Shown here piece after piece: positions 1-38,993 of a stretch of 38,993 nt of DNA (its first letter is position 1; each line of letters starts with the position of its first letter). The stretch covers positions 1 through 38,993 of the IMG/VR virus record IMGVR_UViG_3300032212_000066, one strand, 5' to 3'. Below the pieces are notes generated by a model. The model had not been told where the DNA came from, searched no databases, and worked only from the letters and a program-made list of their open reading frames with translations. The translations under genes and the position numbers were made by a program. The DNA comes from a virus. Its lineage: Duplodnaviria; Caudoviricetes.

Positions 1-287
1 CGTGACGCCCAAGGGCTCATGCGTCTGGGTGATGATGCTTTCGGTGCGGTTGTGAACGATGTTGTTCCTGCCAATTTCGCGGCGATCGTTGGCCGTATTA
101 TCGAGGACCCGGCCGAGCAGGTTGCGGTGATCGAGCAGATCGCCCGCGCCGAGGTGCGCAATGCGATCGAGGCAGAGGCGTTGGTTCGCGGTGCCCAGGC
201 CGCCGGTTTTGCCCGGCGTGAGGGCGAGACTGGATCCCTGTTTGGGGACATTCCGACTGAAAGCCTGATCGCCGATCGGGCGCGGAT
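1..287. repeat. Terminal direct repeat (circular overlap), left copy
   Basis: 1-287 matches 38743-38993 base for base except that 127-162 (36 bp) is missing from the right copy; implies a circular or permuted 38,742-bp genome. Confidence 0.97.
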
Positions 288-1668
288 CCTCAGCCGGGCT
301 ATCTCTATCCTTCGCAAGGAAAAGGGTGTATTCACAACGCTCGCGCGTGAGGCTGACCGCATCGAGAATGCGGGCAATCGTCTGGCGCGCGACGCCAACC
401 AGGAAAGGGCAAGCACTGATGCCGCGCTCCTCGAGATCCTCCAAACGCTCGCCCACCGTGCCGGCCCCGTCGCCGACGCCCTCAACGCCCGCGTCCGAGA
501 CGCAAACGGAAACTTCGCCGCCGGAGCCCGCGCCTTCGTCGGAGATATCCGAGATCTCACGGCGTCGGGCGATCTCTCTCGGCTTCTCGATGGCGGAAGC
601 CGACGCGATGTTGACCCTGCAGCGTCGGGTGAACGCGGCGGCGATGCGCCGCTAGGCGCCGAGCCGGCGCCGCCGGAAAATCGACAAGCCAGGCCCGGCC
701 AGCCGGTCCGGCTCCAGGCGTTTCCGCGCCAGGAGCACAAGGCGCTTGAGCTCGAATTCATTTCAAGCCAAGCCGATCGTGTCAGTGTTGATGCGCTCCT
801 CGATGGGGCGGATGGCTTGCGTCTGGAGCTGGGAAGCCTGATCGACCGAGCTTTGCCGGATGGTGTCGAAATGGTGCTCGGGCCGGTCAAGGCCGCGGAT
901 CGGATCGTCCAGAAAATCGAAGATAAGGGCTATGCCGGCGCGGGCCGACTGACCGATGTGGTTCGCGCGGCAGTCCTGCCCCGGTCGGTTGAGGAGGCCG
1001 ACGTTTTTGTTGATGGATTGGCAGCGATCGCGCCGGTCTTTGATGAGGGTGTCGCCTTGAGACCGGGCGGATATGTTGACCGAAAAGTGCTTGTCCGTCT
1101 GGCTGACGGGCGGGTTGCCGAGATACAGCTGACGTCGCCGCAAATGTGGTCAGCCAAACGGGATAGAGGTGACGCGGCGTATCATGACTTTCGGGTCAGT
1201 GAGCCGGGGTCTGACGCGCGCCGCGTCGCGCAGGCCAAAATGGAAGAGATATTTGCTGGAGCCTTGGCCGCGTCAGATCAGTCCTGGGTGGGCGGGATTG
1301 CCGGTAGACCCGGGAATGCGGCTTCAAACTCACCGCGCGATATTTCTTCGCCGGACATTGCCCAAATGGCGGGGTCACGCGCCTCCCAGGCGCCGGATGC
1401 GTCCGAGAATACAAATCCTGCGCGCGGCGACACTTCCACCGCCGGCGTGCGTTCCCAGTCTATAAATCGCATGGGGGATACCTCCGCTTCTGATATAGGT
1501 GATGAGTTTCCCCTTGACAATCCCGAAACCGAAGAATTTCAGACTGGATTGATCTTTGAAGCTGGCGAGGGCCCGCGGCGTGAAACTGTAACTGCGGCAG
1601 ATGTAGAGGCCGAGATTGCTGCAGATGACGCGGCTGTCGAGAGATTGAGGGGCTGCGTTCCAAGATGA
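1..1668 (+). CDS. C-terminal part of a large internal virion (ejection/polyvalent) protein; contains a RelA/SpoT-like nucleotidyltransferase domain at ~730-1260
   Basis: In frame with the ORF starting at 37333 across the junction (38761 corresponds to 19; offset 1428 = 476 codons; total ~1025 aa). Synthetase-like motifs VKxxxRxxxK (886), LTDVVR (949), GGYVD (1066), AEIQL (1117). Lies among ejection-protein genes. Confidence 0.85.
   Translation, partial: RDAQGLMRLGDDAFGAVVNDVVPANFAAIVGRIIEDPAEQVAVIEQIARAEVRNAIEAEALVRGAQAAGFARREGETGSLFGDIPTESLIADRARILSRAISILRKEKGVFTTLAREADRIENAGNRLARDANQERASTDAALLEILQTLAHRAGPVADALNARVRDANGNFAAGARAFVGDIRDLTASGDLSRLLDGGSRRDVDPAASGERGGDAPLGAEPAPPENRQARPGQPVRLQAFPRQEHKALELEFISSQADRVSVDALLDGADGLRLELGSLIDRALPDGVEMVLGPVKAADRIVQKIEDKGYAGAGRLTDVVRAAVLPRSVEEADVFVDGLAAIAPVFDEGVALRPGGYVDRKVLVRLADGRVAEIQLTSPQMWSAKRDRGDAAYHDFRVSEPGSDARRVAQAKMEEIFAGALAASDQSWVGGIAGRPGNAASNSPRDISSPDIAQMAGSRASQAPDASENTNPARGDTSTAGVRSQSINRMGDTSASDIGDEFPLDNPETEEFQTGLIFEAGEGPRRETVTAADVEAEIAADDAAVERLRGCVPR
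419..655 (+). CDS. Possible overprinted +1-frame small protein (78 aa, Pro/Ser/Thr-rich with C-terminal helix)
   Basis: ATG at 419 preceded by AGGAAAGG (401-408); host-frame codon usage switches to CTC/GCC/GGA/CGA over ~421-600. Confidence 0.4.
   Translation: MPRSSRSSKRSPTVPAPSPTPSTPASETQTETSPPEPAPSSEISEISRRRAISLGFSMAEADAMLTLQRRVNAAAMRR
1278..1472 (-). CDS. Nested antisense 64-aa protein; candidate immunity/antitoxin for the adjacent RelA/SpoT-like domain
   Basis: MRFIDWERTPAV...EISRGEFEAAFPGLPAIP is aromatic-rich and looks globular; SD GGAGGT 7 nt before the ATG; own promoter; the sense frame here is low-complexity Ser/Ala/Asn linker. Confidence 0.75.
   Translation of the reverse strand: MRFIDWERTPAVEVSPRAGFVFSDASGAWEARDPAIWAMSGEEISRGEFEAAFPGLPAIPPTQD
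1480..1520 (-). promoter_or_regulatory. sigma70-like promoter and RBS of the nested antisense gene
   Basis: Minus strand TTGTCA (1520-1515), 17-nt spacer, TATATC (1497-1492), then GGAGGT (1485-1480). Confidence 0.7.
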
Positions 1669-4226
1669 GTTTTCGAGATTGTATCAGCAATGCTGAAAAT
1701 ACTGGTGATCTGGATCCGGAGCGTGCCCGCAAGATCCGAGATCTTCTCGATGAAGAAGTCGATGCCGCGCGATCTGAGTTCGGCGAGGATGCCGCGGAGG
1801 CAGAGGGCGCGAGGCGGGCATTCCAGCGCCTTGAAGCGGAGGCTGCGGAAAGTAAGCGCCGGCGGCGCCTGGCGATGGAGCGGGCGCGTGACGTGCGGCG
1901 GCGTGTGCTCCAGCGGCGCACATGGGACGGTAAGGCGGACCCCGCCGCAGCGGTTCCGGATCTGATCGAACACTTTGGGACGTCGCCGGATAGCTCTGTC
2001 TGGAGCCGCTACCGTGAAGTGCTGGGCCGAGCTCACTCGACCATGACTGACGTTGTTTTCACTTTTGAAAGGGATCTCGCGTCGAACACCCGCAATCGTG
2101 CGCAGCTCGATAACATGATCGATGAGCTCTATGGCGCCGATACTGGCGACGTGGCGGCGCGCCAGCTGGGCGAAGCCTGGAAGGAAGCTGCCGAGCAGCT
2201 GCGCCAGCGCTTCAACGCGGCCGGCGGCAATATCGCGTATCGCGATGATTGGGCGCTTCCGCAGGCCTGGGATCCGGTCGCGGTCGGCCGGGCGGGCTTT
2301 GATGCCTGGCGCGATGGGGTGTTGCCGCACCTGGACAGGGCGCGCATGACCGACTTTCTGACCGGGCGGCCGCTGTCGGATGAGCGTCTCGAGCGCATGA
2401 TGCGCGATGCCTACGATGCAATTGTGTCCGATGGCTGGAGCCGGCGGGAAGCCGACATGACCCAGGGCGGATCCAGTCTTGCGAACAGTCGCACGGAAAG
2501 CCGCTTCTTCATTTTCAAGGATGGTGCCGCCTATCGGGCTGTCCAGTCCTCTTACGGTAACTCTGACGCGTTCGGCGCGATGATGGAGCACATCGATCGC
2601 ATGTCACGCGAGATCGCGGCGATGGAGGTGCTCGGCCCCAATCCTGTTGCGATGCTGGGCTTTGCTGAAAAGCTGGCGATGAAGGAGGCGGCCGAGGGGC
2701 GGGCTGAGGCGACGACGCCGTTTGATCAGTTGACGGCCATGTTCGGCCGCTCCTCGGATGGGCCGCAATCACGGGTGAGAAGTCAGGGCCGCCTGGCCAA
2801 GAATATGCTGTCCTTGCATATGGGCGCGGCCTATAGTCCCGTTGATGCCAAGCTCGCGCGCACCGTGGGCTCCGTAACGCAGCTCGCCGTAGCATCGAAG
2901 CTCGGCGCCGCAACGCTGTCTGCGATCTCGGATCCGGTCTTTAAAAAGCTCAATCGCCGGTTCAATGGCCTGCCGGAGACGGGGGCGATCCGTGGAACCC
3001 TGCGCCTGTTCAGTCCGACCAATGCCGAAGACCGCCGTCTGGCTGTTCGGGCTGGCCTGGTCGCAGATGGGGCGGCTTCGGTGATGCAAGGGCAGGCTCG
3101 CTATGTTGGCGAGTTCCAGGCACATGCCTGGACGAAGCGTCTCGCTGATATCACGTTGCGCTTGTCCGGATTGTCGCCGCTGACACAGTTCGGCCGTTGG
3201 AGCTCTGGCGAGGAGTGGGGCGGGTACTTCGCCGATTTTGTCAGAGAAGGCACGCCGCTCGAGGATCTTCCGGCAGATTTCCGCGCAATGCTTGATCGTC
3301 ATGGCCTGGGCGGTGACGCCTGGGACGTGCTGCGCCGGGCCAAGTTGGACGAGCCCAAGCCGGGCGCCGCTTTTCTTCGTGCCAATGCGATCGAGGAAAC
3401 AGATCGGCCAGGCGCAACCGCGCTCGCCCGTCGATACCTCGAGGCTCTGAACACTGAGATGGCGTTTGAGACGCCTTCGGCCAGCTATCGCGGCCAGGCT
3501 TTCCTGACGGGTGAGGCGCGGCCTGGCACGTTCCTGGGAACGATCGCCAGGTCGGTCTCTATGTTCAAGTCTTTCCCTTTCACGGTTTTCTTCCTGGCAA
3601 CGGCTCGCTTGCGTCATTCGATGGTGGCCGGTCTCGGCGCGGGGCGTGGTGCAGGCGTGGCGGCCAGCTATGCGGGGATCTTCGCCAGTCGTTACCTAGT
3701 CTACCTCACGCTCGCCGGCGCTGTCAGTCTGCAGCTCAAGGAGATCTCGAAGGGCCGGGATCCTCGCCCCATGACCAGCGGCAAATTTTGGGGCGCCGCG
3801 GCCATGCAGGGCGGGGGGCTGGGGATCTTTGGCGATTACCTGTTCTCCGACCTGAACCGCTTCGGTGGCGGATTGCCGCAAACCGTCGCCGGCCCGATGT
3901 TGCAGACGGCCGGTGAAGCCCTGGATCTGACCGCGGGCAATGTGGCCCAGCTCGCTCAAGGCGAGGATACCAATGCCGCTGCCGAGGCTGTGAGCTTCGC
4001 ACGAAGAAATACGCCCGGCGCTTCAATCTGGTATCTGCGCCTGGCTACTGAGCGGATGCTGGTCGACGAGCTCGATCGGCTGGCAGATCCCGACGCCGAC
4101 GCCCGCTTTCGGCGGCAGATGCGCCGGTATGAGCGTGACTATGACCAATCCTATTGGTGGCGTCCGGGTGAGCGCTTGCCCGATCGCGCGCCGGATCTGG
4201 GCAATGCGGCGGCCCCGACTGAATAA
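1665..4226 (+). CDS. Large internal virion/ejection protein (853 aa)
   Basis: Long helical Ala/Arg-rich ORF with hydrophobic C-terminal segments, located between the ejection proteins and the tail fibre as in BPP-1/epsilon15-type podoviruses; ATGA overlap with the upstream gene. Confidence 0.75.
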   Translation: MSFRDCISNAENTGDLDPERARKIRDLLDEEVDAARSEFGEDAAEAEGARRAFQRLEAEAAESKRRRRLAMERARDVRRRVLQRRTWDGKADPAAAVPDLIEHFGTSPDSSVWSRYREVLGRAHSTMTDVVFTFERDLASNTRNRAQLDNMIDELYGADTGDVAARQLGEAWKEAAEQLRQRFNAAGGNIAYRDDWALPQAWDPVAVGRAGFDAWRDGVLPHLDRARMTDFLTGRPLSDERLERMMRDAYDAIVSDGWSRREADMTQGGSSLANSRTESRFFIFKDGAAYRAVQSSYGNSDAFGAMMEHIDRMSREIAAMEVLGPNPVAMLGFAEKLAMKEAAEGRAEATTPFDQLTAMFGRSSDGPQSRVRSQGRLAKNMLSLHMGAAYSPVDAKLARTVGSVTQLAVASKLGAATLSAISDPVFKKLNRRFNGLPETGAIRGTLRLFSPTNAEDRRLAVRAGLVADGAASVMQGQARYVGEFQAHAWTKRLADITLRLSGLSPLTQFGRWSSGEEWGGYFADFVREGTPLEDLPADFRAMLDRHGLGGDAWDVLRRAKLDEPKPGAAFLRANAIEETDRPGATALARRYLEALNTEMAFETPSASYRGQAFLTGEARPGTFLGTIARSVSMFKSFPFTVFFLATARLRHSMVAGLGAGRGAGVAASYAGIFASRYLVYLTLAGAVSLQLKEISKGRDPRPMTSGKFWGAAAMQGGGLGIFGDYLFSDLNRFGGGLPQTVAGPMLQTAGEALDLTAGNVAQLAQGEDTNAAAEAVSFARRNTPGASIWYLRLATERMLVDELDRLADPDADARFRRQMRRYERDYDQSYWWRPGERLPDRAPDLGNAAAPTE

Positions 4227-4287: not shown

Positions 4288-7143
4288 TTGACCCTCGCCG
4301 CCCAGAACACCTGGACCGTCGAAGATACCGATGGCGCAAAAACCGCCTTCGATATCAATTTCAAGGTCTATGACACGACTGCCCTCGAAGTGGTGGTGGT
4401 GGATCCTTCGGATGGCACAGAGACTGTGCAGACGCCGGGCTCTGACTATTCAGTGTCAGGCAGCCCGGGATCCTACCAGGCCGTCTTTGTGACCGCGCCG
4501 GCCGACGCCTTGAAGGTCTCGATCCGGCCGGTCCTCGATGCCAGTCAGTCCGAAGGCTTCGACGATTTTTCGCGCTTCCCTGCGAGCAAAGCGGAGGGCG
4601 CCCTCGATCGTCTGACGCATCTGGTCAAGGCCACGCAGGATTGGCAGTTGCGCGGGATCCGTGTGCCGGCAGACGAGGCCGGGCTCGTTGTTCCGTCGAT
4701 CACCGAGCGCAAGGGCGGCGGCAATGGATCGCTGTGGTATTGGGACGGTGTGACCGGGAAGGCGACAACCGTCTCCTATGACGAGCTTGTTGAGGCGGCC
4801 GGCGCGCTGGTAGGCGCCGAGGCGCTCGCCCAGATCGCGGCCGAGGGCGATAGCGAGCTGTCGCAGATTGCCGCCGAGGGCGATAGCGAGCTGGCCCAGA
4901 TTGCGACGGCCGGGGATAACGAGCTGGCCCAGATTGCGACGGCCGGGGATAACGAGCAGGCCGACATTGCATCGGCTGGCACAACCCAGATCGCGGCCGT
5001 AGGTGCGGCTGGCGATGCAGAGCTTGTGGATATTGGCGCCGCGGGTGATGCGGAAATAGCAGCGGTGGAGGCGGAAGGCGACACGCAGGTTGCCAATGTC
5101 GCGAGCGCGGCCGGCGCCCAGTTCTATGCGGACACCACCGCCGGACTCGCTGCCGTTTCCGAGGGCGAATATTTCATCGTCATGGAGGCAGATGGCGACG
5201 GGAATGATGTGTTCTCGGTGTATCGCGATCTGTCCGGTGTTGCGACGCTGCAAAACTCAATCCCGTCCGTCGAAGTCTATGCTGCCGTGAAGGTGATTGC
5301 GGATCTCAACACTGAGTATCGCGCCGAGATCGACGGGCGAGAAGGCCGGCAAGAAGGCGTGTACTCGGACCCGACAACGGGCGCTTTGTTTCTTGGCCGC
5401 CTACTGCACTGGGCAATCAAGGACGGCTCTGACTATGTTGGCGCCGCTCTGATGGACGACGGGACGTTTTTCGTCCGGGCGTTGCAGGCGGCGGGCGCGA
5501 TCAAGGGCGAAGGCCTGACGCTGACTGAATTGCTCGATGACAATTTTTACTCGTCGTCGGTAACAGACCCGTCTGGCAATACGCAGTTCGGCGTGCGCAA
5601 ATCGAACGGCGCAGTCTATCTCTATGACGGCTCGATCATCGATCCGACCGAAACCAATTATGACTTCGAGATCCGAGACGAAAACGACAACGTCGCCTTT
5701 GGCGTGCAGGGCTCGACCTTGCAGCTGCCAGGCGGATCGATCGACGGCCTGTCGGCGCGCGACGCCAAGAACCTGGCGGACAGTGAGGCGCGGCAATCTG
5801 GCTTTGTCGAATTCGTGCAGCGGCCAACCGCCGCGGATAACTCCATGATCGCATATGGCCAGTCCCTCGCTGCCGGCGCGGAGACATGGCCGTCTTTGTC
5901 CCAGACCAATGTGCCCGGCACTTATATGTATGGCGACCATGTGAACGGCGCGGCGACTGAGCCGGAGTTTGCCGAGATTGGCACGGCTGCGCTCAATCCG
6001 CTGGTCGCCTCCACGCTGGACAACACCACCATTCTCGACAGCGCCGGCGAGGCGGCCCTGACGCCGGGTGATGGCGCGATCGGCGAGCCTCCCATCATTG
6101 GCTGGGTGAATGGTGCGCGCCGTCGCTCCCTGCAGTCCATGGCTGTGGCCAGTGATGACCGCGATTGGATCGCCCTCAACGCGGCCCGTGGCGGCCGGAC
6201 GATCGAGCAGCTTTCCAAGGTAAACACTCAGGACAGCGAGGACTGGTATGCGCGCCTGTTCGACGGCCTGGGCGAAGTGGACGCGCTGACCACGGGGACG
6301 CATGTCTGTTCGGGCCTTCTGTGGATGCAGGGCGAGCACAACTATACCGACAAGGGCGGAAGTTGGGACAAGGCGACATACAAGTCCCTGCTCGGCGATA
6401 TGTTCGACAATCTCACCACGGATATTGCCGCGGCTCTGACCGACCAAGAGCATCCGCCTTGCTTCCTGACCTATCAGACGGGCGCTTCCTACACGCGCGA
6501 CGTGGACAGCGCTGGCGACCAAGGCCTGCATGTGGGCATGGCTCAGCTTGAGCTGGCCAATGAGCGCTCCGATCTGTGGATGGTCGGCCCGGTCTATCCC
6601 TACACCGACAAGGGCGGCCATCTGGACAGCAACGGCTCGCGGTGGTTCGGGCACCAGGTATCGAAAGTCTGGCACCGGATCGTGATGCAGGGGCTGAACT
6701 GGTCGCCGCTTCGCCCTGTCCGAGTGACGAAGACGGGCAATGTTATCCTGATCGATTTCCATGTGCCGGTCGCGCCGCTGGTGTTTGACAGTCCATATGT
6801 TGAAACCACGGCGACAGATTATGACGCCAAGGGCTTCAAGGTCACGACAGCCTCGGGCGCCACCGTCGGCATCACGGTGTCCCTCGCCGGAGCCACGATC
6901 GTTCAGATCGATTGCGCGACCGACCCGGGCGAGGACGGGCTGGTCTGGTACGCCGACAAGACGGTCCATGAAGGCAATGGCTGCCTGCGGGACAGCGACC
7001 CGACCAAGGCTAGCGATCTTTACGAGTATGTGCCCGCGCGCGGCATGTATGCCGGCGCCAATATCGCCGCGCTCGTTGATGAGCGTTATCCCCTGCAAAA
7101 CTGGAGCGTGGCGTTCTGCGTTCCCATGGACTACGAGGACTGA
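4288..7143 (+). CDS. Tail fibre/tailspike with N-terminal podoviral anchor, 11-aa repeat stalk and SGNH (sialate O-acetylesterase-like) domain
   Basis: N-terminal FDINFKVY...DYSVSG and ALDRLT anchor motifs; YGQSLA, WMQGE and DxGGHL SGNH blocks; TTG start after GGAG. Confidence 0.8.
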   Translation: MTLAAQNTWTVEDTDGAKTAFDINFKVYDTTALEVVVVDPSDGTETVQTPGSDYSVSGSPGSYQAVFVTAPADALKVSIRPVLDASQSEGFDDFSRFPASKAEGALDRLTHLVKATQDWQLRGIRVPADEAGLVVPSITERKGGGNGSLWYWDGVTGKATTVSYDELVEAAGALVGAEALAQIAAEGDSELSQIAAEGDSELAQIATAGDNELAQIATAGDNEQADIASAGTTQIAAVGAAGDAELVDIGAAGDAEIAAVEAEGDTQVANVASAAGAQFYADTTAGLAAVSEGEYFIVMEADGDGNDVFSVYRDLSGVATLQNSIPSVEVYAAVKVIADLNTEYRAEIDGREGRQEGVYSDPTTGALFLGRLLHWAIKDGSDYVGAALMDDGTFFVRALQAAGAIKGEGLTLTELLDDNFYSSSVTDPSGNTQFGVRKSNGAVYLYDGSIIDPTETNYDFEIRDENDNVAFGVQGSTLQLPGGSIDGLSARDAKNLADSEARQSGFVEFVQRPTAADNSMIAYGQSLAAGAETWPSLSQTNVPGTYMYGDHVNGAATEPEFAEIGTAALNPLVASTLDNTTILDSAGEAALTPGDGAIGEPPIIGWVNGARRRSLQSMAVASDDRDWIALNAARGGRTIEQLSKVNTQDSEDWYARLFDGLGEVDALTTGTHVCSGLLWMQGEHNYTDKGGSWDKATYKSLLGDMFDNLTTDIAAALTDQEHPPCFLTYQTGASYTRDVDSAGDQGLHVGMAQLELANERSDLWMVGPVYPYTDKGGHLDSNGSRWFGHQVSKVWHRIVMQGLNWSPLRPVRVTKTGNVILIDFHVPVAPLVFDSPYVETTATDYDAKGFKVTTASGATVGITVSLAGATIVQIDCATDPGEDGLVWYADKTVHEGNGCLRDSDPTKASDLYEYVPARGMYAGANIAALVDERYPLQNWSVAFCVPMDYED
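4825..5090 (+). repeat. 33-bp tandem coding repeat (hendecad LAQIAxxGDxE)
   Basis: Units start at 4825, 4858, 4891 and 4924 (last two identical), then degenerate copies. Confidence 0.9.
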
Positions 7144-10478: not shown

Positions 10479-11975
10479 CTAGATCTTGAGCCCGGTCGCT
10501 TTGGCCTGGCGCTCGAGGGCGGCGCCGGCCTTGTCCGCGAAGGTGGGGTTTATGACCAGGTAGTGCTTGAGGAGCTTGAGCAGGTTCTCGACGCTGGATC
10601 CATGCCAGGATGCGATCTCAGCCAGGCGTGCCTCGTTCTCGGTGCCCAGCGCCTCGAACAGGCGGGTAACGCCGGTGTCGCGGCTGTCGGCCAGGGTGAG
10701 CGATTTGTTTGCCTGACCGAAGGCGTCCCGTCCCTGGCCGATCAGGCTCGGCTCGAGGCGGCCGGCAAAAGCGCGGGCGCGGATCCAGTGCGAGTTGAGG
10801 CGCTTGAAATAGACTTGCCCCGGCGTCGTGGCGCTCTCGCCCGTGACCTGGCGATAGGGAAGCCGGGCCTCCGTGTCGTAGAAAACAAGCCGCTCGAGGT
10901 CGTCGGCGGGGAGCTGCACATCGAGACCGGAGCGCGCGGCCCGGGCAAGCTCGATCGCTTCGCGGGCCGGCTCGAGGAGCGGGACGTGAACGGGGCGGCC
11001 GGTCTTGGATTGGCGCAGGGTGAAATAGCCGCCGGCGATCTGGTGATCGGTCGCGCTGGCTACATCGTTGACGCGCTGGCATGTCCAAAGTGCAAACAGC
11101 CAGGCGGCGGCGGCGCCGGCTACGGCCGGCGGGATCTCCTCGGCCTCGAGGGCGCGGCCTTCCCGGCGGGCGATCTGCTCTGCCAGGATCTCCGGGCGAG
11201 CCAGGGCGTCGAACATGGCGGCGGCCTCGGCCGGTGTGGCCATGCGCAGGCGGCCGCCAGGCTGGCCAAGGCCGAGCTGGGTGTAGATCTCCGGATGCGG
11301 GAGGGACGCCATTGCTGCGGGGTCCTTGCGGCGCAGCCAGTTGAAAGCGCGGCTGAGGGAGCGCTGCGCGCGGACGGCCGAATGCCACCCGGCTTCCTGG
11401 ATCAGGGTTTCAAAAACCAGTTCCAGATCTGCGCGGGTAATGGCGCGCGGATTGTCGGGGCCGAGTATCGGGCGGAGAAGGGCAAGGCCGCTGCGATAGG
11501 TGGAGACGGTGTGCGCGCCGATCGGGTCGCGCCGGCCGGCTTCGCCACGTTGCTCCTTGAGGACCCGGCCGGCGGCGCAGGCCTCGAGGAATTGATCGAA
11601 CCATTCCGCGGTTGTCCGGGTGCGTGCCTGGGGCCGTGCCGCCGGCCGCGTCTTCTCGATTTGCTGGCGGGTTGCGTCGGCGACCGCCTGGACGGCGCGG
11701 ATCGCGTCTGCAAGATCCAGCGGCGGGCCGTCGACTGTCAGGGCAGCGCAGCCCTCCGGTGCTTCCTGGAAGCCGAGGCCGCGCCAGCCCTCTTTGGTTT
11801 CTGCGATCGGGGATCCAGGAGCGCCGAGCAGGTAGAAGCCCTTGAAGCCGCGCTTGCGGAGCGATGGCCCCGGGACCCAGCGATAACGGGCGGTGCCGTC
11901 CGGAAGCGGGCGGCTGTGTGTGAGGCCGGGGGCCTCGCCTCGTTTCAGTCGAAGGGCCATGCGGCTGGCTTTCAT
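10479..11975 (-). CDS. int: Tyrosine integrase
   Basis: TCQRVND (R), QSKTG (K), LADSRDT (R) and LKHYL (Y) catalytic motifs; near attP and excisionase. Confidence 0.88.
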   Translation of the reverse strand: MKASRMALRLKRGEAPGLTHSRPLPDGTARYRWVPGPSLRKRGFKGFYLLGAPGSPIAETKEGWRGLGFQEAPEGCAALTVDGPPLDLADAIRAVQAVADATRQQIEKTRPAARPQARTRTTAEWFDQFLEACAAGRVLKEQRGEAGRRDPIGAHTVSTYRSGLALLRPILGPDNPRAITRADLELVFETLIQEAGWHSAVRAQRSLSRAFNWLRRKDPAAMASLPHPEIYTQLGLGQPGGRLRMATPAEAAAMFDALARPEILAEQIARREGRALEAEEIPPAVAGAAAAWLFALWTCQRVNDVASATDHQIAGGYFTLRQSKTGRPVHVPLLEPAREAIELARAARSGLDVQLPADDLERLVFYDTEARLPYRQVTGESATTPGQVYFKRLNSHWIRARAFAGRLEPSLIGQGRDAFGQANKSLTLADSRDTGVTRLFEALGTENEARLAEIASWHGSSVENLLKLLKHYLVINPTFADKAGAALERQAKATGLKI

Positions 11976-13952: not shown

Positions 13953-14312
13953 TTAGGCTGCGGTGTCGTTCGCCGGCGAGCTTGCGATCGCCTTGAAAGC
14001 GGCGCGCCACTTCTCCTGGTCTTCCCGGGAGAGCGAACGGAATGTTTCAACCAGGTCGGCTTCGCTTTCGGTCAGGCCTTCGCCGGGCTCTGCAACCAAG
14101 TCTCCGATCGAGCATGCCAGCGCTTCGGCGAGTTGTTGTAGCTGGTAGACCCGCAGCCGTTTCGGGTCGGTCTCATAGCGCTGGATGGTTTGAGGGGTGC
14201 TGTCCATTTTCTCGGCCAGCTCCGCCAGGGTGAGGCCGCGCATCATTCGGATCTGTCGAAGATTATGCGGAACGTCCCGGCGTACCGAATTGTATGCCTT
14301 GCTCGAGCTCAT
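13953..14312 (-). CDS. CI-like XRE-family repressor (no S24 peptidase domain)
   Basis: LRQIRMMRGLTLAELAEKM..TPQTIQRYE HTH; divergent from a Cro-like gene. Confidence 0.85.
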   Translation of the reverse strand: MSSSKAYNSVRRDVPHNLRQIRMMRGLTLAELAEKMDSTPQTIQRYETDPKRLRVYQLQQLAEALACSIGDLVAEPGEGLTESEADLVETFRSLSREDQEKWRAAFKAIASSPANDTAA

Positions 14313-14413
14313 GGAACAGATTGTTCCACGCGCCGCGAGGCTGGGCGAGCGCCGGATCGGTGAAAAACCGTCCGTTCCTGGTTGACTGCTATGGCAAATC
14401 ACGCCTCTTAAAT

Positions 14414-14448
14414 ACACCAATCTGGTGATATTGGAACCGAATAGGTGA
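14414..14448. promoter_or_regulatory. Right operator region
   Basis: ACACCAATCTGGTGA (14414-14428) and GAACCGAATAGGTGA (14434-14448) match the left operators. Confidence 0.75.
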
Positions 14449-14456
14449 TTTTCACG

Positions 14457-14792
14457 ATGTCCTCGCATACGTCCTCCGCGCCTCCCACTGCAAATAAGCT
14501 GGATGAATTCCGGCGAAAAAAGGGCTGGACGCTAGCTATTCTTGCCGAGCAGCTGGGCGTGGCCGTGCAATCCGCCAGTCGGTACTGCCTCAGTCTCGAC
14601 GATGAGGACTACCGCTGCCCTAACCCGGAGGTTGCTGCAAAACTGCCTGCAATCACAAACGGTTCTGTCCATGTCGGTATGATGCTACCGGCCCCCGGCC
14701 GGGCCGTTCGCCGGGCGGCGCGCAGGCAGGCCGGGGCCAACCTGACGCCTCGTTCACATAAAATTATTCCGCCCACGGAGCGGCGGCCATGA
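14457..14792 (+). CDS. Cro-like HTH protein
   Basis: KLDEFRRKKGWTLAILAEQLGV...SRY...P.PEV..KL..IT.G.V pattern. Confidence 0.8.
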   Translation: MSSHTSSAPPTANKLDEFRRKKGWTLAILAEQLGVAVQSASRYCLSLDDEDYRCPNPEVAAKLPAITNGSVHVGMMLPAPGRAVRRAARRQAGANLTPRSHKIIPPTERRP

Positions 14793-22377: not shown

Positions 22378-23223
22378 CTAGAACAACAGTTCGAGCTGTT
22401 GCGCGCTCGGGCGCTGGCGCTTCTCGGCGCCGGGGATGATGTATTGAAGGCCGGCCGGCGTGGCCTCGAGGCTGGGCGTGGGCGTCTCGGGCTGGGCGAG
22501 TTCTTTGATCGGCCGGCGGGTCATGCTCATCGTGTGCCCGACCTTTTCCTCGAGCTCTGCGTATTGCTCGAGGAGGGCCGGCTTGAGTTTTGCGGCTGTC
22601 TGGAGATCTGCCCGGCTGGACATGATGCAGAAGCAGCAGCTGAGGCGGCTCATGCCGGCGGCGTAAGCCTGGTGGGGTTGTTGGCCGGCGCTCTCGATCG
22701 CTGTAAAAACCGCGGCCTCGCTCCATTCAAAGATCGGATACCATTCCCACCATTCCCGGCCGGCCTTACTGTTGCGAAGGTCAAACTTGAGAGGGTTTTT
22801 CCGGGCTCGGCTTGAGCTTTCCTCCGCGCGGATCCCCATGCAGTTGACGATCCGGCCGGCGTGCTCCGGGTGGGCTTTTAGGTAGTTCCGGATCTCGCGG
22901 GCAATCGGGTCGCGCTTTAGGTCGCTTGTACATTGGCGTTGGCTGGGGCTGGGGAACATGCCGCGCCGCTCGACCATTTCAAAGAAGGTCTTGGCGGCCC
23001 GCGCCAGGATCAGGGGCTCTCCTGATGTGGTGGCCTCGATGTGTTCGACCAGGCCGGGCCAGTCGACCCCGGGCAGCTCAGCGTGAATGATCAGCAGTTG
23101 ATGGGTCGGCACGAGGTCCTTGAGGACCAGGTACATGGCTTGACTGTCTTTGCCGGCGGAGTGGTTACAGACAAAGAGCGCGCCTTGCTCAATGAGCTCC
23201 TGGATCTTGGGGGGTGTTTTCAT
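22378..23223 (-). CDS. PAPS-reductase-family (PP-loop, DndC-like) protein
   Basis: SAGKDS, CT..LK..PI, GIRAEES..RA and RLSCCFC motifs; RBS GGGAG. Confidence 0.88.
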   Translation of the reverse strand: MKTPPKIQELIEQGALFVCNHSAGKDSQAMYLVLKDLVPTHQLLIIHAELPGVDWPGLVEHIEATTSGEPLILARAAKTFFEMVERRGMFPSPSQRQCTSDLKRDPIAREIRNYLKAHPEHAGRIVNCMGIRAEESSSRARKNPLKFDLRNSKAGREWWEWYPIFEWSEAAVFTAIESAGQQPHQAYAAGMSRLSCCFCIMSSRADLQTAAKLKPALLEQYAELEEKVGHTMSMTRRPIKELAQPETPTPSLEATPAGLQYIIPGAEKRQRPSAQQLELLF

Positions 23224-35287: not shown

Positions 35288-37333
35288 ATGCCAAGGATCA
35301 ACGCGAACCGAGCCGGGGTGCGTGGCCCGCGCCTGATTGGTGTGACGCCAAGCGCGCCGACTGCCCGCAATATGTTGGCGCCGATCGGGCAGGCGATTGA
35401 GGCGATCGCTGACGATCGGCGACGTGAGGCCGAAGAGGAGCGCGAGCGGGCTGACCGGATCGCGGTGGCCCGCGCGGAAAGCGCTTTCCTGCTGAATGTC
35501 GGTCGTGGCCTTGATGAGGCTGCGGAGGGCTATGACGGTGCCACAAACGGCTTCGCTGACAGCCAGGCGGAGCGCTATGACGCGGCGGTTGCCAGCGCCC
35601 TCGAGGCCGCGCCGGAGGGCATTCAGGGGCGCCTCGAGGAGCGTTTCGCTGGCCCCATGAGGGCGCGTCACCTCCTGGCCGCGATGGATATCGAGCGCAG
35701 CAAAACCGGGCGCTATGTCTATCAGGGTTTTCTCGATCACGTCGACGCGAGCGCCAACGCCGTCAATGGCGAGCCGGGCTTTTTCCCGGACGCGCTGGCG
35801 TCGATCGAGGACGCTGTGACGGCCCTGCCGGAGGAATTGCAGGCCGGGGCACGCGACGAAGCGATCGGCCAGGTTTCGCGGTCCTATGCCGAGGCGCGGT
35901 TGAATGCAGATGCGGCCGGTTTCCTGTCCGAGATCGAAGGCGGATCGCTTGATGCGATTTTTCCGGCAGAGGTTCGCCGGTCCTATGCCAGCCAGGCGCA
36001 AGCCGAGATGGATCGGCGGGAGCGGGCGGCCGCTGTCGAGGCGCGCCAGGCGGCGGCTGTCGAGGGGCGTGTGCTGGCGCGGATGCTCGACGATGCCGAG
36101 GACGCGGCCGAGCAGGGATTTTCGCCGGCTATTTCCTTTGAGGCGGTGGCCCAGCGCGCGGCGGCACTCGGCAATGAGGACGGCGCGGATCTCCAGCAGC
36201 GCGCGATCGAGGCCGCGTCGATCGCGCAGATGGGCGAGGAGCTGAGGGTTTTGCCGCTCGCTGATCTGGAGCAAAGGATTGTCGAGGAGCGGAGCCGGAT
36301 CCGCGAGGGCGCAAGTGGCTTTGAGGCGCGCCGGATCGCTGCGGCGGAACGGGTGTTGTCGACAATGCGCAGCGAGCTTTCGTCCGATCCGGTTGCCTAT
36401 GCGCGCCGGACTGGCGTCGGAGATCTGCCGGATCTCGACTTTTCATCGCTTGATGGCCTGGGGGGGAGCCTCGCCGATCGGGTGCCGCGCGCTCAAGCGG
36501 TGGCAGATCATTATGGTGTCGAGCGCCAGATCTTCACGGGTTCAGAGCGTCTTGCCCTGTCGGAAGCGGTATCACGCGGGGATCTGGATCGGGCGTCGGT
36601 CGCGCAATCGATTGTTGCCAGCCTCGGCCGTGACGCGCCCGCGGCGCTGCAGGAGATCGCGCCGGATGAGCCCCTGTTGGCAACGGTCGGCGGATTGATG
36701 ACGGCCGGAGCGCCTACGGCGGCGCGAGATCTGGCTCAGGGCTATCAGTTGCGGGACCAGGAAGGCTTTGCGTCCCGTCTGCCCTCGCGCTCGATCGTGC
36801 AGAGTGCAGCCGCGCCATTGCTAGGCGGGCTTGCTGAGCGTCTGCCAAATACGAGCCTCGAGCTGGTGGAGACAGCCTCTGCGATCTACGAGGCGCGTGC
36901 CTTGCGGACAGGCGTTGTTCAGGACGGCGAGGGGTGGCCCCGCCGTGGTGAGCGCATGTTCGAGCAGGCTTTGCATGAGGCTGCGGGCGCTGTTTTCGTC
37001 GGCGATCGTCGCTTCGGCGGGCTCGAGGAGCATCGTGGCGAAATGGTCATGCTGCCCAATTGGCTCTCGGAGGGGCGCTTGGATGACGTGATGCGCCTGA
37101 TCTCGGAGGGCGAGTTTGGGCCGCCTGGCGCCATGACGGACGCGAGGGGCAGCGAGTTGAGCGCCGGCGTTCTGCGCCGCGCGCGTCTGCAGTCTGTGGG
37201 CGATCAGCGCTATCTTGTCATTCCCGGCCGCGGCGATGGTGTCGCGCTGGATGATGCCGGGGCGCCGTTTGTTCTGGATCTGTCGGCCTATCGCAATGTC
37301 GTCAGTCGTGATTATCCCGATTGGGTGCGCTGA
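35288..37333 (+). CDS. Internal virion (ejection) protein
   Basis: MPRI start, 681-aa helical Ala-rich protein in the ejection-protein cluster. Confidence 0.75.
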   Translation: MPRINANRAGVRGPRLIGVTPSAPTARNMLAPIGQAIEAIADDRRREAEEERERADRIAVARAESAFLLNVGRGLDEAAEGYDGATNGFADSQAERYDAAVASALEAAPEGIQGRLEERFAGPMRARHLLAAMDIERSKTGRYVYQGFLDHVDASANAVNGEPGFFPDALASIEDAVTALPEELQAGARDEAIGQVSRSYAEARLNADAAGFLSEIEGGSLDAIFPAEVRRSYASQAQAEMDRRERAAAVEARQAAAVEGRVLARMLDDAEDAAEQGFSPAISFEAVAQRAAALGNEDGADLQQRAIEAASIAQMGEELRVLPLADLEQRIVEERSRIREGASGFEARRIAAAERVLSTMRSELSSDPVAYARRTGVGDLPDLDFSSLDGLGGSLADRVPRAQAVADHYGVERQIFTGSERLALSEAVSRGDLDRASVAQSIVASLGRDAPAALQEIAPDEPLLATVGGLMTAGAPTAARDLAQGYQLRDQEGFASRLPSRSIVQSAAAPLLGGLAERLPNTSLELVETASAIYEARALRTGVVQDGEGWPRRGERMFEQALHEAAGAVFVGDRRFGGLEEHRGEMVMLPNWLSEGRLDDVMRLISEGEFGPPGAMTDARGSELSAGVLRRARLQSVGDQRYLVIPGRGDGVALDDAGAPFVLDLSAYRNVVSRDYPDWVR

Positions 37334-38993
37334 TGCGGCCGATCTTTGAAACACCGCGCCTTGATGATCTCGAGCCGACCGAAGGCGCCCAGCGTGGTTT
37401 CTTCGGATCTGTCGCTGCAGGCTGGGAGGCGCAACGGTCCTTTGACAACTTCAATTCCGAGGCGTTTCTGCGCGACCGGGTTTGGCGCGATTACATCGAT
37501 GAGATTGAGCTGCGCAGTGGCGACCGCTTGCCGCATCCCGACGACTTTATTCCTGAGATCGATCTGCCAATCATGCTGGGCGCCAGTGATGAGGACGGTG
37601 GGGGTGTCGCGGGCGCGAAGGCGCGGTTTGTCCTGGCGCGCATCGAGGAGCTCCGCGACCAAAACCCTGAGCTGAATATTCCCGGGCCAGAATGGATGGC
37701 TGAGCGGCTGATGGCCGAAGCCGATCGGGTGGAAGTGGAAGAAAGTCGATCTGGCGGGGCCGGTCTTTTTTTCGGGCGGCTCGGCGCAGCTTTCACGGAT
37801 CCTGCAACGATCGTGACCGCGCCGGTCGGAGGTGGGCAGAAAACCGTGTTGCGGGCGGCCGGCGTTGAGGCAGCCGTCAATGGCCTGCTTGAGATGGCCA
37901 ATATCCCGGTTGCAAACCGCTGGCGCGAGGAGCTCGGCGTTGACACGATGACCCTCGAGGAAGGCGCGCAAAGTGTAGCGATCGCAATGGTGGCGGGCGG
38001 CATTCTGGGTGGAGCGGGCCGCTTTGCTGAAACTGAGCTACCGCGGGCGTTCAACCGTTTGTCCAATTCACGTCTGGCGGCTGCGCTGCGGGATCTGTCC
38101 GGTGGGAACCCGGAGCGCCTGGAGCTGGCCGAGGCCCTGGCGCGCGAGGCGGAGGTTGAGGGGCAAAACCCGTTCCCGCCAAGTGGTGCGGATCTTCATG
38201 AGGCGCGCTTGCAGGACGCGATGACGGCGATCACAGAGACGGATGCGGCTCGAGCGGGCGCTGCGATGGAGCGCCTTCTCGAGGACGTGCCGCCGCCGGC
38301 GGCGGGGTCTGCCGCTTTGCCGTCTGGGCTTACTGAAATTGATCCGCGAACGCTCGAGGTCGACGCGGCCCGCTTTCAGTTCAAGGACGGCGGGGACAGT
38401 GAGGGTGTGACCGATCGGCTGGCCGGTGTCAGTGAATGGGATCCGGTGCGTGCGGGGATCTCGCTCGTCTTCGAGCAGGAGGACGGCGCGCGCTTTATCG
38501 TTGATGGGCACCAACGTCGGGGGCTGGCGGCCCGCCTCCTCGAGGAGGATCCGGATGCCAATATTCGATTGACGGCCTTCGTCTACCGCGAGGCCGATGG
38601 ATGGGCGGATGCCGAGATCCGCGCGATCGCGGCGGCGAAGAACCTGGCCGAAGGCACAGGAACGGCGATCGATGCTGCCAAGATCCTGCGCGCGGATCCG
38701 GATCTCCTGGATGGCTCCCTCCCCACGCGCGGAGCGCTGATCCGTGACGCCCAAGGGCTCATGCGTCTGGGTGATGATGCTTTCGGTGCGGTTGTGAACG
38801 ATGTTGTTCCTGCCAATTTCGCGGCGATCGTTGGCCGTATTATCGAGGACCCGGCCGAGCAGGTTGCGGCGATCGAGGCAGAGGCGTTGGTTCGCGGTGC
38901 CCAGGCCGCCGGTTTTGCCCGGCGTGAGGGCGAGACTGGATCCCTGTTTGGGGACATTCCGACTGAAAGCCTGATCGCCGATCGGGCGCGGAT
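37333..38993 (+). CDS. N-terminal part of the junction-spanning ejection/polyvalent protein, with a ParB-like domain
   Basis: TGATG-coupled ATG at 37333, open to the contig end (absent from the ORF track because it has no stop); DAARFQFK...FIVDGHQR (38494)...AAKNLAEG ParB-like motifs. Confidence 0.85.
   Translation, partial: MRPIFETPRLDDLEPTEGAQRGFFGSVAAGWEAQRSFDNFNSEAFLRDRVWRDYIDEIELRSGDRLPHPDDFIPEIDLPIMLGASDEDGGGVAGAKARFVLARIEELRDQNPELNIPGPEWMAERLMAEADRVEVEESRSGGAGLFFGRLGAAFTDPATIVTAPVGGGQKTVLRAAGVEAAVNGLLEMANIPVANRWREELGVDTMTLEEGAQSVAIAMVAGGILGGAGRFAETELPRAFNRLSNSRLAAALRDLSGGNPERLELAEALAREAEVEGQNPFPPSGADLHEARLQDAMTAITETDAARAGAAMERLLEDVPPPAAGSAALPSGLTEIDPRTLEVDAARFQFKDGGDSEGVTDRLAGVSEWDPVRAGISLVFEQEDGARFIVDGHQRRGLAARLLEEDPDANIRLTAFVYREADGWADAEIRAIAAAKNLAEGTGTAIDAAKILRADPDLLDGSLPTRGALIRDAQGLMRLGDDAFGAVVNDVVPANFAAIVGRIIEDPAEQVAAIEAEALVRGAQAAGFARREGETGSLFGDIPTESLIADRAR
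38743..38993. repeat. Terminal direct repeat, right copy (36-bp in-frame deletion variant)
   Basis: Matches 1-126 followed by 163-287. Confidence 0.97.

Follow-up and report, generated by a model that had tools for sequence, protein, structure and literature searches.

The genome deposited as IMG/VR record IMGVR_UViG_3300032212_000066, a tailed phage of the Caudoviricetes whose 38,993 nt were analysed as one stretch (the window), encodes a large protein of the virion gene block with an internal alarmone synthetase-like domain, and directly behind this domain the opposite strand carries a small gene for a predicted immunity protein. The Tas1/Apk1-like synthetase (SYNTH) domain, recognized by profile, structural model, fold match and catalytic residues, occupies positions 730..1300 of the plus strand. 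It is followed in the same frame by a Ser/Ala/Thr-rich linker (1301..1530, plus strand) that is open throughout and predicted to be disordered (predicted local distance difference test, pLDDT, below 60, with disorder predicted after residue ~195 of the modelled stretch). The linker bears both the antisense gene and its signals, and over 47 loci with such a nested gene 20% of its residues are Ser. The antisense open reading frame (ORF; 1278..1472, minus strand) extends from an ATG at 1472-1470 to a stop codon at 1280-1278 and comprises 64 codons, the last of which overlap the final helix of the domain; the assignment of its 64-aa product draws on profile matches, a selection test of its family and a model of the complex. 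A Shine-Dalgarno sequence, GGAGGT (1480..1485, minus strand), lies 7 nt before the ATG and reads in the sense frame as a recurring 'MGDTS' motif. Upstream of it are a -10-like hexamer, TATATC (1492..1497, minus strand), placed 19 nt before the ATG, and, across a 17-nt spacer, a -35-like hexamer, TTGTCA (1515..1520, minus strand). A preliminary description of this DNA, made from the sequence alone, had reported the ORF, the Shine-Dalgarno sequence, both hexamers with their spacings and the low-complexity character of the sense linker, all of which were found as described.

An open frame of this length is weak evidence by itself, as 21% of 64-codon windows in nine sense genes of the window phage are open in this antisense frame, although stop codons reappear on either side of the ORF. 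The combination of GGAGG and ATG is found at just 15 starts in the 39-kb window, both strands included (16 rows). A scan for promoters of the Escherichia coli type missed the promoter because it requires T as the last base of the -10 hexamer; most alphaproteobacterial sigma70 promoters have no T at that position (PMC8407463), and the final C of TATATC fits promoters of that kind. A perfect TTGACA on the plus strand (1514-1519) overlaps the minus-strand -35 box, with no matching -10 found by the scan, and no terminator-like fold was detected past the antisense stop codon (z=-0.84). It is conservation that raises the antisense ORF above chance.

A catalytic-motif pattern recovered 120 viral loci (80 of them with flanks) and 26 loci in bacterial genomes, nearly all labelled Alphaproteobacteria. 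Conservation was counted over the 104 loci, window included, that have at least 560 nt downstream, 43 of 147 loci being too short. One antisense protein family lies directly behind the domain in 91 of the 104 loci, always in the frame seen in the window (81 nested, 10 convergent), as judged by a family profile that was trained on 43 of those same loci. The window ORF, held out of training, matched this profile at E=2e-11. The profile also hit 25 of 25 bacterial-genome loci with a flank, at least five of which duplicate prophages of the training set. Among 57 non-redundant family members, ATG is the start codon of 49, and a Shine-Dalgarno sequence of 5 or more nt precedes 40, compared to 8 of 1163 same-frame control windows. 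The pattern TTG-N20-TA occurs 4-32 nt upstream in 28 of the 57, as opposed to 114 of 11,400 control positions (1%); in 18 of these 28 the distance to the start is exactly the 19 nt of the window. Five of the 28 are devoid of a Shine-Dalgarno sequence; in these the ATG follows the -10 box at 6-8 nt, the spacing expected of leaderless transcripts. No family matching either this or a second antisense clade (see below) was found in PDB, Pfam, NCBIfam or PHROG, and of 401 sampled genomes of the class the family profile matched two, one being the seed genome and the other a marginal match with a stop codon.

In the 10 convergent cases the domain ends its protein, carriers including portal proteins, and the two genes lie tail to tail with an overlap of 4-103 nt with the end of the toxin gene. 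A profile of seven convergent genes matches the window ORF at E=8e-5, and a quick, midpoint-rooted tree, which does not set the order of events, places the convergent forms among the nested ones. The shares of Tyr, His and Gln are 0.2, 0.3 and 0.5% in the nested members, as opposed to 3.9, 3.5 and 1.6% in the convergent ones. Their codons pair with sense stop, Tyr, Trp or Cys codons in this frame, so such depletion would be expected from keeping the host frame open. Additional copies of the family were found in Aminobacter ciceronei (L145/L028), where two lie in a separate 533-codon frame on the opposite strand, ~1.65-2.2 kb past the catalytic motif. There they form the C-terminal end of a product whose N-terminal part is hydrophobic, which may represent a fused immunity array. 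In another locus (L225) a single host ORF harbours two tandem antisense copies, of which the second has a recognizable start and no domain directly before it.

Selection on the two frames was compared in 25 pairs formed from related loci, none of which was used twice, by counting transversions at third positions, which coincide in both frames. Within the overlap, transversions were seen at 75 of 364 sites that are silent in both frames, at only 11 of 283 sites that change just the antisense protein (p=7.5e-11), and at 37 of 239 that change just the sense protein (p=0.13). Counts for the domain run the other way, at 154 of 708, 109 of 489 (p=0.83) and 35 of 750 (p=3e-23), respectively. These counts indicate that the linker is near neutral and that the hidden gene is the conserved part. 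The per-frame comparison proposed in the preliminary description thus revealed purifying selection on the antisense frame and none detectable on the sense linker. We regard the nested antisense gene as almost certainly real and protein-coding. Selection on the antisense protein frame also led us to reject a type I toxin-antitoxin system, in which the antitoxin is a non-coding antisense RNA; an added effect at the RNA level is possible.

The gene and the domain come and go together. Orthologues of the host gene were collected by a motif in its ParB region, which yielded 80 loci with flanks (40 of 120 lacking them were dropped) and, after removal of 23 of the 80 whose ORF ran off the locus, 57 with a complete ORF. 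The antisense gene is present in 18 of 18 orthologues with the domain, 12 times as a member of the first family and six times of the second, and in none of the 39 without it. This comparison and the family counts uphold the suggestion that ORF, Shine-Dalgarno sequence and promoter are conserved, and found just where the domain is. The second family belongs to a second synthetase clade, which is closer to Tas1 in a quick midpoint-rooted tree and has a same-frame antisense gene with a Shine-Dalgarno sequence in 29 of 31 loci (two of 33 were dropped as short). The two antisense clades align weakly from end to end (E=0.009, probability 4.4) and likely share common ancestry, to judge by their sequences. 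At one Pseudovibrio locus the domain occurs twice in tandem, and a separate nested gene accompanies each copy. Two phages (L236 and L229), 98.5% identical over the compared stretch, are set apart by a single in-frame indel of 702 nt that is flanked by 7-bp direct repeats and spans the domain and the antisense coding region. The shorter phage, L236, keeps the antisense promoter and Shine-Dalgarno sequence as an orphan convergent promoter inside a virion gene, which points to deletion. The idea that domain and nested gene could move as one in-frame cassette is supported by this indel, which takes in both.

A search of 1.84 billion proteins recovered 535 homologues of the domain (clusters at 50% identity). 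The profile of 34 sequences matched Tas1 (6ox6_A) at E=6.7e-22 and the synthetase SaEAS (8vx3) at E=1.5e-8, and the domain model (mean pLDDT 83.7) had 6ox6_A as its best Foldseek match (E=2.1e-7); a single-sequence fold was discarded (pLDDT 38.8). With codons numbered from position 730, K54 (889), D76 (955), R79 (964), Y115 (1072), E131 (1120) and Q133 (1126) align with K305, D327, R330, Y366, E382 and Q384 of a Tas1 orthologue (L152). K54, D76, R79 and E131 are invariant across the 34 sequences, and R330 and E382 are listed among the ATP-site residues of Tas1 (PMC12691689). The window protein gave no direct match to Pfam RelA_SpoT, for which relatives gave weak matches, and single-domain word-index and tblastn searches returned only the window protein or nothing. 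By profile, fold and catalytic residues, the RelA/SpoT-like domain of the preliminary description can accordingly be specified as Tas1-like. Such an enzyme would pyrophosphorylate nucleotides, by analogy most likely making (p)ppApp as Tas1 does, although SaEAS, an enzyme with dual ppGpp/ppApp activity, is among its closest relatives of solved structure; it is also likely to be toxic. Of 30 homologues scanned with Pfam, 16 had matches (LPD38, ART-PolyVal, ddrB-ParB, Acb1, lysozyme, LPD22 and MuF). Fusions to MuF include P0009 and P0031, and in two loci (L037:530-2776 and L136:3297-5273) the synthetase forms the C-terminus of a phage portal protein with a convergent partner gene.

The predicted complex of the domain with the 64-aa protein had an ipSAE (interaction prediction score from aligned errors) of 0.83, compared to 0.00 for the best of three controls; the mark used is attained by 116 of 157 solved complexes but by just 2 of 215 mismatched pairs. 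Model runs shared at least 90% of contacts, with a partner pLDDT of at least 88. In the modelled interface, partner residues 35-43 pack against the domain loop 109-115, which includes Y115, and against residues 151-155. By analogy with Y128 of FaRel2, this loop would form the site for the acceptor nucleotide, the part of (pp)pApp synthetases that proteins of the Tis1 type occlude (PMC11782079). The structure prediction suggested in the preliminary description hence does yield an interface, on the acceptor-site loop. We consider it quite probable that the small protein is an inhibitor of the synthetase. Membership in the Tis1 family by sequence was rejected, as 42 of 300 shuffles scored as high; weak leads consist of 0.76 in Atlas and pairwise similarity of a C-terminal motif (E=0.002 and 0.017). 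In one locus (L158, genome G1019) a Tis1-family gene is broken by an in-frame TGA. The candidate was also rejected as a pseudo-zinc-finger (pZFD) antitoxin with a YXXY motif, the window protein having no Tyr and nested members almost none.

The nesting stood, with one correction: the ORF at 1..1668 (plus strand, 555 codons) is just the 3' half of the host gene and encodes the end of a ParB-like part, the synthetase domain, the linker and an acidic C-terminal tail. The gene starts at 37333 and its 5' half (37333..38742, plus strand, 470 codons), which lies in the internal-virion/ejection block, runs over the circular join into position 1. Window positions 38743-38993 are terminally redundant with positions 1-287 but have lost 36 nt in frame, so that the host protein has 1025 aa, or 1013 aa in its deposited form, P0001. 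The single public DNA run, which may stem from the source sample, has the longer, window-start version of the repeated end, with two substitutions. Upstream of the 5' half are genes for portal, capsid, tail and an 'internal virion protein' (phrog_418); the immediate flanks of the host gene are this phrog_418 gene with a phrog_992 head protein on one side and a phrog_684 virion structural protein (1665..4226, plus strand, E=5e-162) on the other. An orthologue of the host protein in phage SI2 (34% over residues 9-675) aligns both before and after the domain and has the acidic C-terminal tail, while the synthetase domain and the small gene are absent. Gene order, the variable presence of the domain among orthologues and the Pfam matches of homologues all agree with the definition of a polyvalent protein, in which swappable conflict domains are combined in one polypeptide of the virion block.

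As to the wider setting, the window is a whole, circular genome of a podovirus-like phage, with integrase, repressor, terminase, portal, capsid and tail genes followed by the internal-virion block. The integrase (10482..11975, minus strand, phrog_1) and repressor (13956-14468, HTH_3) mark the phage as temperate. A protein encoded at 22381-23223 (minus strand) matches the PADLOC models BrxP/SspD/DndC and can be interpreted as 3'-phosphoadenosine-5'-phosphosulfate (PAPS) reductase-like, possibly the product of a DNA-modification gene, and the tail-fibre gene contains tandem 33-nt repeats (4860-4960, ELAQIATAGDN-like).

The reading we favour, and consider probable, is an injected toxin-immunity pair that comprises a Tas1-like domain in a protein likely ejected by the virion and an overprinted antisense gene for its predicted inhibitor. 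What the sequences themselves show is a domain with its catalytic residues, a coding antisense gene under purifying selection, conserved Shine-Dalgarno and promoter-like signals, coupling of gene and domain, and their gain or loss as one unit. To judge by its position in the internal-virion block, the host protein would be packaged and then ejected with the phage DNA into a new host cell. The antisense gene would be read from a host sigma70 promoter, active in the lysogen and soon after DNA entry and independent of late transcription, and its product would bind the acceptor-nucleotide loop and neutralize the enzyme, as Tis1 does. The small protein could then guard the producing cell while late synthesis is under way, shield lysogens when kin phages inject the enzyme, and, after transcription of an incoming genome has begun, inactivate the enzyme injected with it. 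Nesting would solve a problem of layout: behind a domain inside a polyprotein there is no room for an immunity gene on the same strand, and the reading frame would pass through the convergent immunity gene as a neutral linker.

Several observations weigh against the injected pair in addition to the shared training and counting loci mentioned above. One long-branch lineage, 13 of the 104 loci, has no family member in the 5-kb stretches searched, and neither do two of the 31 loci of the second clade, which are identical to each other (14 of these 15 loci were searched in this way). In the gene-less lineage (L006, L016, L052, L065 and nine related loci), the synthetase forms the C-terminus of a ~470-490 aa protein, with catalytic motifs intact in three sequences inspected, so the pairing of domain and antisense gene is not absolute. 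Of the Tas1 ATP-site residues given in PMC12691689, N370 is replaced here by K119 and the K353 position has no Lys counterpart, which makes the product of the domain uncertain. The window domain is a long branch (2.17) with no close relative for which DNA is available, and hence falls outside the 25 selection pairs; a metagenome pattern search for close relatives returned only the window's own record. P0001 has no Pfam match, and the virion location of the host protein is deduced from gene order. The score of the modelled complex could stem from resemblance to the solved structure of Tas1 with Tis1 (6ox6), and sequence comparison with Tis1 (PF24154) matched 0 of 44 members, with an hhalign probability of 0.16.

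These points leave room for a pair that acts just in the producing cell, either shielding late synthesis and assembly or serving as a prophage addiction or abortive-infection switch, with the enzyme never delivered in active form. CapRel and other toxSAS enzymes are indeed resident defence toxins (PMC11782079), the virion location is a deduction from gene order, and delivery has not been demonstrated even for MuF-fused Apk2 (PMC10083569). We nevertheless find this explanation unlikely, because the domain recurs on virion parts, be it in ejection or polyvalent proteins with ddrB-ParB, LPD38, ART, lysozyme or MuF or at the end of the two portal proteins, and PADLOC gave no match for the pair.

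It would be similarly surprising if the antisense gene were real but its product no inhibitor, acting for instance as a packaging chaperone or an activator, or if the convergent transcript mainly silenced the host gene in the lysogen. The undetected sequence homology to Tis1, the lineage with an intact-looking domain and no antisense gene, and the promoter and Shine-Dalgarno sequence retained in L236 after loss of the cassette would all accord with such roles. They contrast with the predicted interface over the acceptor-site loop, the selection acting on protein sequence, and a size and one-to-one coupling that resemble those of the structural immunity proteins always found behind Apk2 (PMC10083569). 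That the antisense ORF is an unexpressed shadow of the sense linker in a stop-poor frame, as its chance openness, the lack of calls for most nested copies in public protein sets and the mere 13 matches of the family profile might suggest, is very improbable and at the level of the family largely refuted by antisense-specific purifying selection, conserved Shine-Dalgarno and promoter spacing, homologous genes where the sense frame has already stopped, and the stops that resume on both sides of the ORF.

The injected toxin-immunity pair can be extended to an infection by poison and antidote, which we put forward as a possible but doubtful scenario. The virion would inject an alarmone toxin with its DNA, the sole antidote would be a gene in that DNA read from a host promoter, and toxin and backwards immunity gene would be exchanged among virion proteins as a single in-frame domain. 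Cells in which the genome is accepted and transcribed would then survive, as would lysogens of kin phages, and cells that destroy the DNA by restriction or CRISPR would be poisoned. On a wider reading, some of the 'low-complexity linkers' behind toxin domains in polyvalent proteins may be unannotated immunity genes.

Virion-fused alarmone toxins with small immunity genes are known, the latter following a C-terminal toxin (PMC10083569, PMC12226406), and RelA/SpoT domains in phage polyvalent proteins have already been described (PMC5512222). A nested antisense immunity gene was not encountered in the literature searched, which lay mostly outside subscription papers and supplements, in keeping with the preliminary description, which was aware of no account of this architecture. 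The word 'antisense' is absent from the main text of PMC5512222, PMC12691689, PMC11782079 and PMC10083569, and in the first of these so are 'opposite strand' and 'overlap'. Phage-like loci of this kind are carried by the cultured alphaproteobacteria Pleomorphomonas koreensis DSM 23070, Rhodoblastus acidophilus DSM 137, Salipiger marinus DSM 26424 and Aminobacter ciceronei DSM 15910, which makes it possible to test directly what PMC10083569 left as a question, whether injection of virion-fused alarmone toxins takes place and who is harmed by it. A toxic enzyme in the middle of a virion polyprotein can, it appears, still keep its cognate immunity gene, on the other strand of an annotated 'linker' where gene callers mostly miss it. 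Candidate inhibitors for the many phage alarmone synthetases recovered here (535 clusters) can be drawn from the family, which also provides a clear case of two-strand coding in which selection is separable by frame.

Among known arrangements, Rz1 of phage lambda is likewise a whole gene inside another, Rz, although it lies on the same strand in a shifted frame and, unlike the window pair, follows no toxin-immunity logic. Another class of small folded inhibitors of toxSAS domains, the pseudo-zinc-finger antitoxins of ATfaRel2/CapRel (PMC11782079), block the donor site via YXXY, whereas the tyrosine-free window protein is modelled on the acceptor-site loop. Polyvalent proteins (Iyer et al. 2017, PMC5512222) share with the window protein the presence of RelA/SpoT and DdrB-like ParB domains in multidomain phage proteins, and homologues of the window domain carry the same LPD38, ART-PolyVal and ddrB-ParB domains; such domains have been proposed to change host transcription and translation. 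The cases described there are from Spirochaetes and epsilonproteobacteria, while the loci studied here are alphaproteobacterial and have a nested partner gene.

MuF-fused Apk2 with IapK/BcTis1 and Aph1 (PMC12226406, PMC10083569) has in common with the window a temperate phage, fusion to a virion protein, a synthetase of the (p)ppApp type and a small structural immunity protein. Apk2, however, is the C-terminal part of MuF and is followed by its immunity genes, whereas the window has a podovirus internal-virion carrier with the candidate on the opposite strand; no gene for an Aph1 hydrolase was identified among the window proteins scanned. Apk1 and Apk2 are defined by an N-terminal PAAR or MuF and a C-terminal toxin (PMC10083569), and the window protein falls outside this definition in having no Pfam PAAR or MuF match and an internal domain.

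The closest system is Tas1/Apk1-Tis1 of Pseudomonas aeruginosa PA14 (PDB 6ox6; PMC10083569, PMC11782079), which is the top match in both sequence and fold and with which the catalytic Lys, Asp, Arg, Glu and Gln align. The likeness extends to the small partner, which is predicted to sit on the acceptor site and has weak C-terminal motif similarity to Tis1 at the better of the two pairwise E-values given above. Tas1 is a C-terminal toxin on a PAAR carrier of the type VI secretion system, and tis1 follows it as a gene of its own on the same strand, an order also seen in L152. In the window, the domain lies inside a phage protein, and the partner, with no significant family-level homology to Tis1, is antisense and nested and has promoter-like signals of its own; an antisense position, nested or tail-to-tail, holds in 91 of 91 loci. 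The pair appears to be of the Tas1-Tis1 kind, set in a two-strand in-frame cassette that is apparently an architecture new to description.

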